DNA of 32,000 nt. Source: Fibrobacter succinogenes subsp. succinogenes S85. GTDB lineage: Bacteria > Fibrobacterota > Fibrobacteria > Fibrobacterales > Fibrobacteraceae. Both the position numbers and the translations under genes were made by a program. The stretch spans positions 780,001 through 812,000 of the forward strand of contig NC_017448.1 in assembly GCF_000146505.1 (NCBI RefSeq), given 5' to 3'. This document shows positions 2,746-30,783 of this stretch, in pieces. Position 1 is the first letter of the stretch, and each line of letters begins with the position of its first letter. The notes beneath the pieces are model-generated. The model saw only the letters and a list, made by a program, of their open reading frames with translations, ran no database searches and was not told where the DNA came from.

Positions 2746-3390
2746 ATGATTTGCCATAAATGCGGAAAAGAATACGAAGACGATATGCCCAACTGCCTTT
2801 GGTGCGATGCACCCAACTTGCAACATCCAGCCAACAAGGGCAAGCAATTCACAGAAGCTCCCGCACAAAGCATTTCAACAGAGCCCGCAGAAACAGAAGC
2901 CACAGAAGCGCACCCCGCAGGTCTTTTCATGTGGACCGCCGCCATTTTAGCAGCATGCAATCTCGGCTACTTATATATCGCAATTCTCATCACATTTTTC
3001 CATAAAAAAGCATTACAAGAAAATAAAGCCCTCGGCCGTTTTTTCGTAGGAATGCTAATCGCAAGCATCGGACTTTACTTTATAACAGCCCCTGTCATCA
3101 GCGTAATCAGCACATCGCTCTTAAAAATTAATGAGCTTAATGGAGGTCATTCCTCATCAACTATTTTGCTCGCCTTAAGCGCTCTGTACCCCATCACGCA
3201 AGGATTTATCGGCGCCAAGCTACTCAAGTTCTACACGCCAGACTACGATTCCAAAGACTACCGCAAAAACAGCGTCGTGAGCACCATCGCTGCAATCGTT
3301 TTGTTTTTTATTTGCGCGTTATGCGGTTTTTATACTGACATAGCGCAAAACGGTACGCAGTTCACACAAATTCTAACGAAAAAATACTAA
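2746..3390 (+). CDS. Zinc-ribbon domain membrane protein (hypothetical)
   Basis: The N-terminus has CHKCG...CLWC (two CxxC pairs), followed by several hydrophobic segments. AAGGA lies upstream of the ATG. Confidence 0.7.
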   Translation: MICHKCGKEYEDDMPNCLWCDAPNLQHPANKGKQFTEAPAQSISTEPAETEATEAHPAGLFMWTAAILAACNLGYLYIAILITFFHKKALQENKALGRFFVGMLIASIGLYFITAPVISVISTSLLKINELNGGHSSSTILLALSALYPITQGFIGAKLLKFYTPDYDSKDYRKNSVVSTIAAIVLFFICALCGFYTDIAQNGTQFTQILTKKY

Positions 3391-16296: not shown

Positions 16297-16349
16297 TCTT
16301 AAACGTAATTTAAAGCATTCAATTTTTCAAATTTCAAAAATTCACAAAA

Positions 16350-16377
16350 GACCGTTCTCTACGAACGGTCTCTTTTT
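16350..16377 (+). terminator. Rho-independent terminator after the YfhO-like gene
   Basis: GACCGTTC-TCTAC-GAACGGTC followed by TCTTTTT. Confidence 0.8.
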
Positions 16378-16799
16378 ATGTCCCGTTCCGGTTCCGGAAA
16401 ATTCGCAGTTCGCCCTGACGCAGAAATAACGGTCTGAAATTCTAAATTTCCAAGATACTCAAAAGCGATCGAAAGGCCGCCTTTTTTCCAAAAAAAAGAT
16501 TTTTGAAAGTTTTCAACCCCACTGAGCCAGTAAATGATTTATATTTGTCCCGTATGAAAGTTTTTGGTAACATGGAAACGCTTTCCAATACGGCATCCGA
16601 CCTTAAGGAGCCGTTAAACCTGTTACCTCCCCCCAGCGAAAATTCTAGTTTACAAAACAAGGCTGCTAGCGAAAACACCTCCATCGGCCTGTTCGACGTG
16701 CATGTGTACATGGGGCAGTATTTCGACGATTACTATACGCCGACTTCCACAGGAATAGCAAATTAAGCCAAACAATCAAAAAAAAGATCACATACTTTT

Positions 16800-17612
16800 A
16801 TGGCCATCTTCTTAAACGACATATTAAAAATTGAAAATTTCGCAGATGTGAGAATTCGTTTTAATCTGCAAATGAATGGAAATTACAACCCTATTGATGC
16901 ATTCGATAAAAACAACCTCAAAAAATACATAGATGGACATTATTGGAATTATCCCCAAAGAAAATCTTTTAAACTTAATCAAAGGACGCTGGGCTTTATC
17001 CCCTACGACCGTAAAGATAATACATGGCTTTTATTCCATGCGGGCAAGGTGATTAAGGATTTAAACATACTCAACGGCGTAGGATACGACTATAGCGATA
17101 TTGAAGAATTTTCAAAATACTGCGGTCGTTTAATCATCAGATATAAAAACAAAAGTCGAAATCCCATCTTTTACGCCGAGACCTGTATAAACGATTGTGA
17201 AGTTGTTGAAATATTGCCAGATATATATGATGACGATGTTTTCCCTGGTTATGAGAACGTGAATATTTCTTGGGAAAAGCTGTCCCGTGTTATAAGTAAA
17301 GAGTCATGGAAAACAGCTCTTCAAAATCAAAAGGGCGTTTATTTGATTACTGATAAAAAAACGGGAAAAATGTATGTAGGGTCTGCGTATGGCGAAAACA
17401 TGCTTTTAGGTCGATGGACAAATTATGCAGAAAATTGTCATGGTGGAAACGTTGATTTCAAAAAACTTAAACCCAATTATATAAAGTCTAATTTTCAATA
17501 CACTATTTTGGAAATATTTAAATCGACTACTGCTGACGAAGTAATTATAAATCGAGAATCTTGGTGGAAAAACGTTCTTATGACAAGAGATTTCGGTTAT
17601 AATAACAATTGA
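16800..17612 (+). CDS. GIY-YIG nuclease domain protein with an uncharacterised ~170-aa N-terminal domain
   Basis: The C-terminal region GVYLITDKKTGKMYVGSAYGENMLLGRWTNY ... NRESWWK matches GIY-(10 aa)-YVG plus the conserved Arg and Glu. I recognise no motif in the N-terminal half. The gene is visibly AT-rich. Confidence 0.8.
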   Translation: MAIFLNDILKIENFADVRIRFNLQMNGNYNPIDAFDKNNLKKYIDGHYWNYPQRKSFKLNQRTLGFIPYDRKDNTWLLFHAGKVIKDLNILNGVGYDYSDIEEFSKYCGRLIIRYKNKSRNPIFYAETCINDCEVVEILPDIYDDDVFPGYENVNISWEKLSRVISKESWKTALQNQKGVYLITDKKTGKMYVGSAYGENMLLGRWTNYAENCHGGNVDFKKLKPNYIKSNFQYTILEIFKSTTADEVIINRESWWKNVLMTRDFGYNNN

Positions 17613-17654
17613 TTTTTAGTCTGTAATTTTCAACTTTTTAACAAAGGAAAATGA

Positions 17655-18680
17655 ATGGCTCTTTTTTGTAGAAAATGTGGAGAAGAAATAGGCCCCATTG
17701 ATTGTCAGATACATAATAGTTTATGTCATAACTGTTATAGAGAACAAAAAAAAGCTGAAGAGCATAGGGAACGCCTAGAGGAACTCAGAGAAGAAGAAGT
17801 CGAATACCAACGTCAGGCAGCTCGCGATGCCGAAGAAGCTAGACGCATTGCTGGCCTAACCACATTTACGTGTTGCCATTGCCAGGGAACATTTAATGAA
17901 GAACGAGGATATTCCGCGGTCGAATCCCCTATCGGCAAACCCGTTTGCAACAAATGCTTTGAACTGCTAAAAAAGTGCATTGATTGTAATCAGTACTTTT
18001 GGAAAAACGATCCTAGATCAACACCAATTCGCCTGATAGAAAAAGAATATTATAGAACAAAAACTTTTTTTGACGAGCCAGTCATATATGTAAAAGATAG
18101 AAACGACTATGTTTGTGACAATTGCGCTTCAACAGCTAAATATGAATCGTTCTTTGAAGAACAAAAAAAGCTGAAACAAGAATACGACACCCAAGAACGT
18201 ATCCGACGAGAAAAAGAAGCTGCAGAAAGAGCGGAACGAGAGCGCAAAGAAGCGGAAGCTGCTGAACAAGCTCGTATAAAAGCAGAACGAGAAAAAGAAG
18301 CCTACGAAGCAGAACGAAGGGAACGAGAGGAGGAAGAACATCAGAAAGCCGTTTTATTTAATGTCATTTTTGGAATCATTTTTACACTATTGTCAGCATA
18401 TGTATGCTACTCACTCATGTCCAACGTAGGCCTAATACTAGGTATAATATTAGGCATAGGTGTAACAACAATACGTTTAATTCAGCTATCACAAAATTTC
18501 GGAGACTTCCTAGTGAGAGTAGCCGTATGTATTGTGGGAAGTGCGGTTGTTTGCTGGTTGTTTGGACTCTTTTACGGGTTTGCTTGCTGGTTGTTTGGAT
18601 TTACAGATATTTCCGGAACAACTCTTTCTATAATTTGGCTAATACTGACACTAGTGTCAGTATTTCTGCTTAACAGTTAA
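17655..18680 (+). CDS. Multi-zinc-ribbon, coiled-coil, C-terminally 4-TM membrane protein (hypothetical)
   Basis: CxxC pairs at CRKC/CHNC, CCHC/CNKC, CIDC and CDNC. There are two E/R/K/A-rich predicted coiled coils (EEHRERLEELREEE...; RREKEAAERAERERKEAEAAEQARIKAEREKE). About 4 hydrophobic helices follow over the last ~110 aa. The gene starts 42 nt after the GIY-YIG gene on the same strand. Confidence 0.8.
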   Translation: MALFCRKCGEEIGPIDCQIHNSLCHNCYREQKKAEEHRERLEELREEEVEYQRQAARDAEEARRIAGLTTFTCCHCQGTFNEERGYSAVESPIGKPVCNKCFELLKKCIDCNQYFWKNDPRSTPIRLIEKEYYRTKTFFDEPVIYVKDRNDYVCDNCASTAKYESFFEEQKKLKQEYDTQERIRREKEAAERAERERKEAEAAEQARIKAEREKEAYEAERREREEEEHQKAVLFNVIFGIIFTLLSAYVCYSLMSNVGLILGIILGIGVTTIRLIQLSQNFGDFLVRVAVCIVGSAVVCWLFGLFYGFACWLFGFTDISGTTLSIIWLILTLVSVFLLNS

Positions 18681-18740
18681 TTACAAAGAAAGCACTTACC
18701 AAGAAAAAGTCAAAAGACATTAAGAAAACTGATAACAATA

Positions 18741-18764
18741 AAAGCCTCGCTTACGCGAGGCTTT
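18741..18764. terminator. Bidirectional terminator hairpin between convergent genes
   Basis: AAAGCCTCGC-TTAC-GCGAGGCTTT, with T-rich sequence following on both strands. Confidence 0.75.
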
Positions 18765-18807
18765 GCTATTTTCAACAAATCGGGAAAAACGACTTTTATT
18801 CGCACAC

Positions 18808-20595: not shown

Positions 20596-20611
20596 AGATT
20601 ACTTCGCAACG
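20542..20611 (+). repeat. Direct repeat copy A (3' end of the TIGR02147 fragment plus downstream flank)
   Basis: AGCGACAAAGTCTTTCAGCTAGAGTTTGCGATGTTCCCCGTCGGCGGGAAGTAAAGATTACTTCGCAACG. Over the first 55 nt, 51 positions match copy B by my hand alignment. Confidence 0.85.
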
Positions 20612-20688
20612 GAATAAAAAAAACAGCTTCTGCAGTGACAAATTGCAAGCCCAATTTTTACTAGCGAATATAAGTTTTTTTCCTAAAT

Positions 20689-21426
20689 TCACCAATTTGT
20701 GCAAAGCCATTCTTTAAAAAAGTCACAAGATCTTTTTCCTTCAGCTTTAGCATATTTTTCCATTGTAATAAACCAGCACGGCTCAGATGGATGATTTGTA
20801 TAAATGTAATCAATATTTTTTCCTTTAGTCCAGTCCCAAAAATCTTGTTTAAAACAACGCCAATAGTCTCCAGGATATCTAGAATTTCTTTTTCCCTTAT
20901 CATCGAAAACACCTTCAACACAATCCTTAACCAACCTACTCATAAAAACGATGAGATTTGGTTTAAGAATACCTATAACATCGACCAAATTTTTGATAGC
21001 ATATTCTCTATCATCTTTTTCTCCTCCATGTTTACTCCAAAATTTCTGCATATTTTGTTCACTTTCATCTGCTGGGCGTAAAAAATAATTGTAAAACGCA
21101 ACTGATTTCCATGCATCCCTTTTTCCTGTAGCCAAATCCATTGTTTCTTGAACACGGTTACAAAATGTTGTATTACGCCATACGCCCCAAGTTTTACGCG
21201 TAGCGCAATTATTTTCTTCTTTAGAATTATGAATCACTGTTGGATTCATATACCATGTTGAAACATCGTGATGAACAATTGTACCATCAGGCATATAATG
21301 GCTATCTCCAACCAACAAGAGTTTTTTATGCTTACTCAAATCGTAATCATCTCCAACAAAAGGAAGCATGTACGCGTGATTCTTGTAAAAAGGCAGCTTT
21401 AATAAGTCATTATCATATTTGGACAT
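20689..21426 (-). CDS. Hypothetical protein with uracil-DNA-glycosylase-superfamily-like motifs
   Basis: A 245-aa AT-rich ORF. KLLLVGDSHYMPDG resembles UDG motif A (GQDPY/GEAPG position), and YIYTNHPSEPCWF resembles motif B (HPSP). The fold assignment is tentative. Confidence 0.65.
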   Translation of the reverse strand: MSKYDNDLLKLPFYKNHAYMLPFVGDDYDLSKHKKLLLVGDSHYMPDGTIVHHDVSTWYMNPTVIHNSKEENNCATRKTWGVWRNTTFCNRVQETMDLATGKRDAWKSVAFYNYFLRPADESEQNMQKFWSKHGGEKDDREYAIKNLVDVIGILKPNLIVFMSRLVKDCVEGVFDDKGKRNSRYPGDYWRCFKQDFWDWTKGKNIDYIYTNHPSEPCWFITMEKYAKAEGKRSCDFFKEWLCTNW

Positions 21427-21558
21427 TGTTACTCCTTGACAAAAGATTTTATAGAAAAACCACTATCGACTAAAAATAACATAAAAAGACATGGAAAAAG
21501 CCTTATACACTTTGCCATAAATGTCTCATCGAAGCAGCAGAATAATCAAATTCGCAGC

Positions 21559-21588
21559 GGAAATAAAAAGAGCCCGCTTCTGTGCGGG
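21559..21588 (-). terminator. Terminator-like hairpin upstream of the cassette gene (minus-strand sense)
   Basis: The minus strand reads CCCGC-ACAGAA-GCGGG followed by CTCTTTTTATTT. It would block read-through from ilvC into the 20689-21426 gene. Confidence 0.5.
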
Positions 21589-21664
21589 GGCAAACTACAG
21601 ATTCAATTTTCACTATAAGCAAGTATAGCAAGGCCGCAGACCCCGAAGCTGTACATACTAGTAC

Positions 21665-29481: not shown

Positions 29482-29608
29482 TTAGTTGCTGCAAAATATA
29501 GAGTTTTTTGGGGTGAACACGAAGATTTCTCAAGTGCTGTTATGCAAACTTGGGGCTTTGATAACTTTAATCCATAAAATATTTATTAGGAAGTGAATAT
29601 TGTTTCAG

Positions 29609-30118
29609 ATGACTCGAAAATTTTTTTTCTTATGCAGCTTTGCTTTTGTGTTTGTATGCACTTCGTGTGATGGAAAGGCCCTTTTTGAAGGCTATGGAGA
29701 GTTTCATTTTAAGAAAAAAACTTCAGATGGGAAACAAATGGAACGTTGTGTGATTGAAGGAAAAAAACTTTCGGTATATGAAGAGAATGTTGAGGCTGAT
29801 TTTTGGAGTCGTCTGTATTTCTCCATTGGTGCGAAAAATTTAAACCGTGTTTATCGATTTGCTTATGAAAATGAATCAGAAAAAGAATTTTTTGGAACAT
29901 ATCAATTTCCTGTAACGACGGGAATAGGGGCTATTCATGAAAATACTGGTATGGTTGTTGTAGAAACATCCGATTTAATAACAATTTTCTATAATAAGGA
30001 ACCTGTAGATGGTTTTTTCATAGAGAAAAACCCATTTTCAAAAAAAATACTTTTTGTATTTAAGTCTAGATTGTCGGAATTAAAACGTAAAGAAGGAGTG
30101 TGTTTTTATTATATATAA
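29609..30118 (+). CDS. Hypothetical small lipoprotein/secreted protein (AT-rich gene)
   Basis: MTRKFFFLCSFAFVFVCTSC is a signal peptide with Cys. I recognise no motif. The codon composition is visibly more AT-rich than the neighbours. Confidence 0.65.
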   Translation: MTRKFFFLCSFAFVFVCTSCDGKALFEGYGEFHFKKKTSDGKQMERCVIEGKKLSVYEENVEADFWSRLYFSIGAKNLNRVYRFAYENESEKEFFGTYQFPVTTGIGAIHENTGMVVVETSDLITIFYNKEPVDGFFIEKNPFSKKILFVFKSRLSELKRKEGVCFYYI

Positions 30119-30208
30119 GTTTATTTTGTTGTTTTTTATTTGTGTTGTATCAAAACTCTTTTATGCCTTGACGAACGCGGCAATGTCATTGTGGCTCATT
30201 CGCCTCTC

Positions 30209-30246
30209 AGATCTTATAGGTGCTCTTTGGGGGCTGAGGTAAAACT
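30209..30246 (+). repeat. 38-nt direct repeat, copy 2
   Basis: AGATCTTATAGGTGCTCTTTGGGGGCTGAGGTAAAACT. Confidence 0.85.
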
Positions 30247-30300
30247 ATCCCTTTGAAAAAGTGGTATATTGTCCTAAAAGAGTTTTATCATGTTTAGTTA

Positions 30301-30336
30301 AGTCTTATAGGGATTCTTTAAAAGCCGAGGCAAGCA
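30301..30336 (+). repeat. Degenerate third copy of the repeat, ending at the RBS/ATG of the GNAT gene
   Basis: AGTCTTATAGGGATTCTTTAAAAGCCGAGGCAAGCA shares TCTTATAGG, TCTTT and GC-GAGG blocks with copies 1 and 2. Here the GAGG serves as the SD for the ATG at 30337. Confidence 0.6.
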
Positions 30337-30783
30337 ATGATAATCGCGATCAACAAAGATGATCCGTGGTGGGAAAAGACCCGCGCTTTCGCGAAAGATT
30401 GCCCATGGCTGCCGGGGCGTCGTTTAGCCGAGCGAATGTCAAAAAACGATTTCCTAGACTGGGAAAAAGTTTTCGTTGCTGTACACGGTGAAGATGTTGT
30501 CGGCTTTTGCGTTCTCGAGGAGAACGGGAACACTCCTGCGCAATTCAATTGCAGCCCCTTTATTAACCTCGTTTACGTTGGCGAAGAATTCCGGGGAGAG
30601 CGGCTATCCAAAAGCTTAATTGACGCAGCGCTTGATTACGCCCAAAGGCTCGGCTATAAAAAAGTTTATCTTAAAAGCGAACATCACGGGCTGTACGAAA
30701 AATACGGATTCAAAAAAATTGCAGATTTTAAGCCAACGGTCGGGCTTGCGAACCAACTGTTTGAAATAGAAATTTCAGTTTAA
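30337..30783 (+). CDS. GNAT-family N-acetyltransferase
   Basis: A 148-aa protein. VYVGEEFRGERLSKSLIDAAL occupies the R-x-x-G-x-x motif position, and ...GLYEKYGFKKI follows. Confidence 0.8.
   Translation: MIIAINKDDPWWEKTRAFAKDCPWLPGRRLAERMSKNDFLDWEKVFVAVHGEDVVGFCVLEENGNTPAQFNCSPFINLVYVGEEFRGERLSKSLIDAALDYAQRLGYKKVYLKSEHHGLYEKYGFKKIADFKPTVGLANQLFEIEISV

Follow-up and report, generated by a model that had tools for sequence, protein, structure and literature searches.

Two adjacent AT-rich genes in the chromosome of Fibrobacter succinogenes subsp. succinogenes S85 raise the question of whether a nuclease and a membrane-anchored zinc-ribbon protein together form a new defence module, as a sequence-only reading of this DNA had suggested, or whether the two are unrelated neighbours. 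The genes lie in a stretch of 32,000 nucleotides (contig NC_017448.1, positions 780,001 to 812,000 of the forward strand), which is referred to below as the window and from whose first nucleotide all positions are counted. Gene 1 (16800-17612, plus strand) is an open reading frame (ORF) of 270 amino acids and gene 2 (17655-18680, plus strand) is one of 341 amino acids. Our analysis makes it very likely that gene 1 is uzuA, coding for a two-domain enzyme that would by itself constitute the single-gene anti-phage system Uzume, and that it sits as a minimal AT-rich cassette beside an unrelated and older gene 2.

Gene 1 is predicted to encode UzuA, a GIY-YIG nuclease

Gene 1 matched the PADLOC model of UzuA (PDLC03974) with an E-value of 2.5e-57, its residues 4-270 aligning with positions 39-310 of the 310-position profile, and a second UzuA model (PDLC03973) with an E-value of 1.5e-55. 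From these profile matches, we identify gene 1 as the probable uzuA gene, whose product is the sole protein of an already named system. A survey counts Uzume as one of three systems that consist of a single gene and carry a GIY-YIG domain (10.1101/2024.10.26.620412), and reviews credit it to Millman et al. 2022 and list its mechanism as unknown (PMC12926258; PMC13223576). The full-length match bears out the earlier expectation of a defence-type nuclease, while the label "uncharacterised" has to be dropped, as the family already has a name.

The catalytic part of the protein was located at its C-terminus (residues 178-270; 17331-17609, plus strand). The Pfam GIY-YIG family (PF01541) matched residues 178-262 with 24.6 bits, above its curated cut-off of 22.6, and the motif itself reads G179-V-Y181 (extended start G179-V-Y181-L-I183), followed after 10 amino acids by Y192-V-G194. 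When compared with the PDB, the UzuA family profile matched the catalytic domain of I-TevI (1ln0/1mk0) with an E-value of 3e-7. In that profile alignment, Y181, Y192, R205, E253, and N268 of UzuA correspond to Y6, Y17, R27, E75, and N90 of I-TevI, and these UzuA residues are invariant across 57 homologues. We take the C-terminal domain to be a predicted I-TevI-type GIY-YIG nuclease with a complete catalytic residue set, in agreement with the GIY-YIG core recognized in the sequence-only reading. The AlphaFold2 (AF2) model of the protein had a predicted local distance difference test (pLDDT) score of 89.5, with most of the N-terminal domain above 88. A Foldseek search with this model returned the I-TevI structures with a probability of 1.00 at 27-28% identity, together with GIY-YIG domains of ~100 residues from many phage homing endonucleases.

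The N-terminal domain (residues 1 to ~170; 16800-17309, plus strand) is a mixed alpha/beta domain of unassigned fold and rich in invariant aromatic residues. Its positions without variation among the 57 homologues include Y48, W49, N50, H80, F148-P-G-Y151, W158, and W170. No match to these ~170 residues was found in Pfam, NCBIfam, PHROG, or PDB sequences, which is in line with the earlier failure to assign them. Of the structure search proposed at that time, the part concerning the GIY-YIG domain was productive, whereas residues 1-170 returned nothing: the Foldseek comparison with the PDB and BFVD gave no match outside the GIY-YIG part.

UzuA is a mobile, stand-alone gene

The UzuA family comprised 1670 matches of a uniform length of ~270 amino acids, which fell into 289 clusters at 50% identity (E ≤ 1e-30). 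Identity was ~60% among members from Fibrobacter, Proteobacteria, Bacteroidota, Cyanobacteria, Desulfobacterota, Campylobacterota, and Spirochaetota, and the S85 protein shared 55-71% identity with the relatives nearest to it. In 72 of 78 genomic loci, uzuA was more AT-rich than its own flanks. The mean GC content of the gene was 0.32 versus 0.39 for the flanks, and in high-GC hosts 0.34 versus 0.54-0.57. Relatives were present on 428 plasmid records, including plasmids of 6-24 kb from lactic acid bacteria, where the gene is lone cargo among replication, toxin-antitoxin, and orphan HsdS genes. Phage records contained it in only 3 of 50,697 cases, none of them a full-length match. The closest relative for which the genomic context was available (71% identity, locus L087) lies in a defence island together with a methyltransferase, a 1614-amino-acid helicase, SRA-McrA, NUDIX, a PLD-helicase, and RelB.

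The surroundings of uzuA showed hardly any recurrence. Genes up to three positions away from it in 79 loci formed 382 clusters, the largest of which had 4 members, and the 146 proteins encoded by its immediate neighbours contained 154 Pfam families (E ≤ 1e-5), each in at most 3 proteins. These neighbours are a mix of housekeeping genes, integrases, restriction subunits (ResIII, HSDR_N), and toxins or toxin-antitoxin genes. UzuA is a mobile, stand-alone gene without a conserved partner.

The sole recurrent neighbour, a protein of ~271 amino acids that starts with "MNTYLFLWNPKKWNW...", is encoded directly upstream of uzuA in 4 of the 79 loci (L034, 4089-4901; L055, 180-1409; L084, 162-974; L086, 5114-5926). 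Three UzuA homologues of 377-387 amino acids (P0049, P0081, and P0155) carry an N-terminal extension of ~110 amino acids that matches DUF6508. As a hint to the function of UzuA, domain fusions gave nothing beyond this, the longer variants adding DUF6508 only.

The main rival to a defence function holds that gene 1 is a selfish, free-standing homing endonuclease of the Seg/I-TevI type, which spreads by cutting genomes that lack it, any anti-phage effect being secondary. The nuclease domain indeed has its nearest relatives in I-TevI and in the Seg or intron endonucleases of phages, weak matches were obtained to the PADLOC "HEase" and PHROG "homing endonuclease" models, the S85 gene is AT-rich, was inserted singly between genes, and is absent from a close relative, and the ~60% identity across phyla implies frequent transfer. 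However, no conserved homing site exists, the flanks of uzuA being wholly different between the 79 loci, and site-specific homing was ruled out on this ground. The domain order is also the reverse of that in I-TevI and Seg, with the nuclease of UzuA at the C-terminus, and the NCBIfam homing endonuclease model TIGR01453 scored 40.5 bits, below its cut-off of 56.05. Moreover, the family is common on plasmids and, as described above, rare in phages, and it is catalogued as a defence system. Taken together, we consider a homing endonuclease distinctly unlikely and retain the assignment of gene 1 to Uzume.

Gene 2 is a resident neighbour of UzuA

Genes 1 and 2 are co-directional and separated by 42 nucleotides. 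Gene 2 is closed by a hairpin at 18741-18764 with a 10-bp stem (6 GC pairs), which scored as a terminator on both strands. GC content is low here (0.34-0.40 versus ~0.50); it falls to 0.35-0.38 over 16500-18500, compared with ~0.47-0.56 in the flanks. At synonymous sites (GC3) it is 0.33 in gene 1 and 0.295 in gene 2, versus 0.48-0.72 in the backbone genes. Because GC3 is low in both genes, the dip is real at synonymous sites, and because conserved homologues exist for each, both are real genes. The closely spaced, co-directional, low-GC arrangement and the bidirectional terminator that had been described from the sequence were thus all reproduced, and both genes are compositionally foreign.

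The product of gene 2 is an accessory membrane protein from a small family that occurs in loci of the Fibrobacter type. It contains six CxxC motifs (at residues 5, 24, 73, 98, 108, and 154), which would allow three Cys4 zinc ribbons, two helical segments (28-66 and 160-230) in which 67% of the residues are charged or polar, and approximately four hydrophobic helices between residues 230 and 341. This reproduces the architecture of CxxC pairs, two charged helical stretches, and about four transmembrane helices read from the sequence beforehand. Its AF2 model had a pLDDT of 78 overall and of ~90 in the zinc-ribbon core, and gave no match in the PDB. No PADLOC, Pfam, or PDB match was found for the protein, and what Pfam, NCBIfam, and PHROG returned stayed below threshold and was driven by low-complexity or transmembrane sequence. 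Homologues formed only 19 clusters, all in chromosomal neighbourhoods of the Fibrobacter type. A Glu/Lys-rich composition as the source of the AT-richness was ruled out by the low GC3 of gene 2 and likewise by that of its homologues (~0.30 versus 0.70-0.77 in their flanks). Our best guess is that gene 2 encodes a cytoplasm-facing multi-zinc-ribbon scaffold with a C-terminal membrane anchor, belonging to a family of paralogues that exchange segments.

The two families do not travel together. In tblastn searches, none of 80 uzuA loci (with flanks of up to 6 kb on either side) contained a homologue of gene 2, and no UzuA was found in six loci that carry gene 2 (L001-L006). In nine further loci with gene 2 relatives (L097-L105), no UzuA-like gene was called next to them. 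Among the first six loci, L004-L006 come from a close relative and retain the order YfhO-like gene, gene 2, Big_9, DUF4423, ilvC at 92-96% nucleotide identity but without uzuA; the interval that lacks it measures 478 bp there and 1474 bp in S85. Further relatives of gene 2 have ilvB/ilvN, a radical SAM gene, ffh, and DUF285 genes in their vicinity, with neither UzuA nor any PADLOC match near them. Gene 2 is therefore an unrelated neighbour of UzuA, and their adjacency, as well as any co-transcription, is accidental to the insertion. The synteny across genomes on which the proposed two-gene module depended fails, and the idea of gene 2 as a membrane-disrupting or sensor partner found no support.

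UzuA entered the locus as a single-gene cassette

The history of the locus can be followed from the points at which its homology to other loci starts and stops. The 300 nucleotides that precede uzuA, among them a small ORF or conserved leader at 16503-16766 (plus strand) whose 3' end was displaced by the insertion, are 74-87% identical in nucleotide sequence to three other locus types (L097-L099, L100-L101, and L103-L105). There, counterparts of the small ORF, with 51-73% amino-acid identity, lie 0.3-1.1 kb upstream of gene 2 relatives (L098, 279-562; L103, 4466-4717; L097, 3755-3884; L100, 3184-3237). The small ORF had no Pfam or PADLOC match. It is an ancestral upstream companion of genes of the gene 2 family and stands outside Uzume. 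A known riboswitch or other RNA in the 300-nucleotide leader was ruled out, with no Rfam match near threshold.

At the left junction, the small ORF ceases to be homologous with other loci after "TACTATACGCCG", at ~16744. At the right junction, a nucleotide identity of 97-100% to the gene 2 allele of L001 starts at ~17642. These junctions show that UzuA entered S85 as a single-gene cassette of approximately 0.9 kb (~16745-17641, plus strand), placed in a variable region between the small ORF and gene 2 and consisting of one gene with 55 nucleotides upstream and 29 nucleotides downstream of it, and this DNA is absent from the close relative L004. A transposon-like or integrase-borne element was ruled out: no terminal direct or inverted repeats were found beyond chance A-rich 12-mers, and the window contains no recombinase. 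Gene 2 is common to the relatives and uzuA has so far been found at this locus in S85 only, so the two foreign genes were acquired separately. Gene 2 is the older of the two at the locus. Of the horizontal acquisition proposed earlier for the pair, the foreign origin of both genes stands, but not their arrival together, since they came separately and at different times. The locus thus offers an unusually clean before-and-after view of a 0.9-kb defence cassette entering a chromosome without a recombinase or repeats.

Gene 2 itself (17642-18800) is a three-part nucleotide mosaic with respect to L001 and L004. Its 5' module is 97-100% identical to L001 and only 32-42% identical to L004. Across the Cys-rich core at its centre, the two loci share 95-100% identity, and S85 reaches 55-88% with each of them. 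The 3' half, together with the terminator, is 97-100% identical to L004, in which uzuA is missing; the terminator at 18741-18764 is therefore part of the resident gene 2 unit and lies outside the UzuA cassette. As L001 and L004 are different loci, this pattern suggests gene conversion among paralogues. Directly upstream of the current start codon in L001, at 365-425, a truncated remnant of an alternative gene 2 start is preserved ("MPLCRKCRVKKICRTSKRN*"), which is a fossil of 5'-module replacement.

The intergenic region upstream carries its own traces of change. After the stop codon of the YfhO-like gene, S85 has ~130 nucleotides within 16297-16495 that are absent from L004, including a terminator-like hairpin at 16346-16374, upstream of the UzuA cassette. 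A degraded copy of the terminator of L004 itself follows downstream of this hairpin, at ~16455-16495. Both features indicate that the region was remodelled more than once.

At other loci, the interval between the small ORF and the gene 2 relative contains unrelated orphan genes of 43, 69, or 246 amino acids. The small ORF and the mosaic gene 2 might frame a variable cargo slot, gene 2 being conflict-related and either marking a hotspot or modulating the cargo. This reading rests on the low GC3 of gene 2, on the interchange of its 5', core, and 3' modules, and on conversion between paralogues, and we consider it unlikely. If it were true, UzuA would be the cargo of S85, and gene 2 might modulate whatever cargo lies upstream of it, UzuA included.

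Some observations weigh against our assignment of the locus. The name Uzume is absent from the preprint version of the primary Uzume paper, and the window genes around the S85 uzuA do not form a defence island. In addition, a terminator is missing from the 42-nucleotide gap; transcription may therefore run from uzuA into gene 2, and through this a lineage-specific functional link between them may exist. That gene 2 works together with UzuA is nevertheless, in our estimate, very unlikely. The module suggested by the sequence-only reading, a new defence system made up of both genes whose membrane zinc-ribbon protein senses infection or disrupts the membrane alongside the nuclease, could draw on this uninterrupted co-directional arrangement with its shared downstream terminator, on the low GC3 of both genes, and on the mosaic and variable alleles of gene 2, which are frequent among genes of conflict systems. 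Against it stand the 0 of 80 UzuA loci with a gene 2 homologue, the absence of UzuA from the gene 2-family locus types examined, the close relative in which this locus contains gene 2 but no uzuA, and junctions that show UzuA to have entered alone. Furthermore, gene 2 has no PADLOC match, its relatives adjoin orphan and DUF285 genes, not defence genes, and Uzume has been described as single-gene (10.1101/2024.10.26.620412). We regard such a system as highly improbable. This removes a false lead: a nuclease that PADLOC and DefenseFinder already call as Uzume stands next to a bystander, the zinc-ribbon gene, so cloning the pair as a "new system" would be misdirected.

A sensor-plus-nuclease mechanism is proposed for UzuA

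For the mode of action of UzuA, the nearest precedent is CMoRE/PD-T4-3, a single GIY-YIG protein in which a second domain of novel fold senses 5-hydroxymethylcytosine (5hmC) or glucosyl-5hmC and which acts as a type IV restriction enzyme, as shown experimentally (PMC12923530). By analogy, the most likely mechanism is one in which the N-terminal domain of UzuA would be a target-recognition or sensor domain for some property of the invading DNA (a modified base, a structure, or a sequence, for example), and this recognition would license the GIY-YIG domain to cut that DNA. UzuA would act alone, with no methyltransferase, immunity protein, or membrane partner; our searches turned up neither a conserved partner nor a methyltransferase that recurs among the neighbours, nor any candidate for an immunity gene. 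Having no detectable fold relative, the N-terminal domain is, by the same analogy, a reasonable target for structural and biochemical work.

The least probable of the explanations, by which gene 1 codes for an orphan restriction endonuclease (type II or type IV) whose host is guarded by a distant methyltransferase or by the enzyme cutting modified DNA only, takes up the existence of GIY-YIG type II enzymes and of the type IV enzyme CMoRE, the separate putative recognition domain of UzuA, and the restriction-modification components (HsdS, HSDR_N, ResIII) that adjoin some relatives, and in its type IV version it overlaps with the mechanism proposed here for UzuA; yet the 25 Pfam families met most often among the 146 immediate neighbours include no methyltransferase, each family occurring in at most 3 of them, no DNA methyltransferase lies within 10 kb of uzuA in the window (the only methyltransferase there is of an ArsR-fused small-molecule type), gene 1 has no PADLOC match to PD-T4-3 or REase, UzuA lacks the GIYxY motif and has a domain order opposite to that of CMoRE, and Foldseek detected no reader-domain fold.

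Other features of the window

A second S85-specific insertion, likewise absent from L004, occupies 20597-21664 and contains the gene Fisuc_0312 (20689-21426, minus strand), a 245-amino-acid orphan with a GC3 of 0.26 whose family comprises 30 clusters. Searches of Pfam, PADLOC, NCBIfam, PHROG, and the PDB gave nothing for it, and it has no similarity to the 246-amino-acid cargo gene of L097-L099. In the two contexts examined, its relatives lie beside or near genes for WCX (a WYL-type regulator), with Fic and an SLFN-g3/Nhi-like helicase nearby. Fisuc_0312 is possibly an uncharacterised accessory or defence gene, and it and the mosaic gene 2 family, as uncharacterised accessory genes, may merit separate study.

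At 29600-30118 (plus strand) lies a low-GC ORF of 172 amino acids (GC 0.32, GC3 0.23) without a Pfam match, the N-terminus of which resembles a lipoprotein signal ("...FLCSFAFVFVCTSC"). The local GC skew is reversed over 29500-30500. A further ORF at 2746-3390 (plus strand, 214 amino acids) has a zinc-ribbon-like start (MICHKCGKEY...CLWC) and no Pfam match, and tblastn found no similarity between it and gene 2.

Comparison with known systems

Among known systems, the S85 gene shares with Uzume a hidden Markov model match over its full length, the same two-domain architecture of ~270-290 amino acids with a GIY-YIG C-terminus, and the occurrence of the family as a stand-alone gene on plasmids, in defence islands, and in variable regions. 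It shows four of the features by which a member of this system is recognized: the profile match, the single gene, the intact catalytic domain, and a family found in defence islands and mobile elements. No structural difference was seen; what sets the S85 copy apart is its position in a housekeeping region of the Fibrobacter chromosome and its identity of 55-71% to its nearest relatives.

With I-TevI, Seg, and other phage GIY-YIG homing endonucleases, UzuA has in common the catalytic fold, the catalytic residues Y, Y, R, E, and N, and 27-28% identity. It differs from I-TevI and Seg in that its nuclease is C-terminal (178-270), following 170 unrelated residues, and not N-terminal. It also has neither a linker nor a DNA-binding domain of the I-TevI type, shows no conserved insertion site, is rare in phages, and scores below the TIGR01453 cut-off.

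CMoRE/PD-T4-3 is the best mechanistic analogue, combining in one polypeptide a GIY-YIG nuclease and a target domain of novel fold, with no partner gene. There, however, the nuclease is N-terminal and the sensor C-terminal, an order that is reversed in UzuA. The nuclease of UzuA is I-TevI-like, not UvrC-like, and has a plain G-V-Y without the third tyrosine of the GIYxY motif, and UzuA has no PADLOC match to PD-T4-3. UzuA is thus not a member of the CMoRE/PD-T4-3 family, and it is with Uzume that the S85 gene has its full-length likeness.

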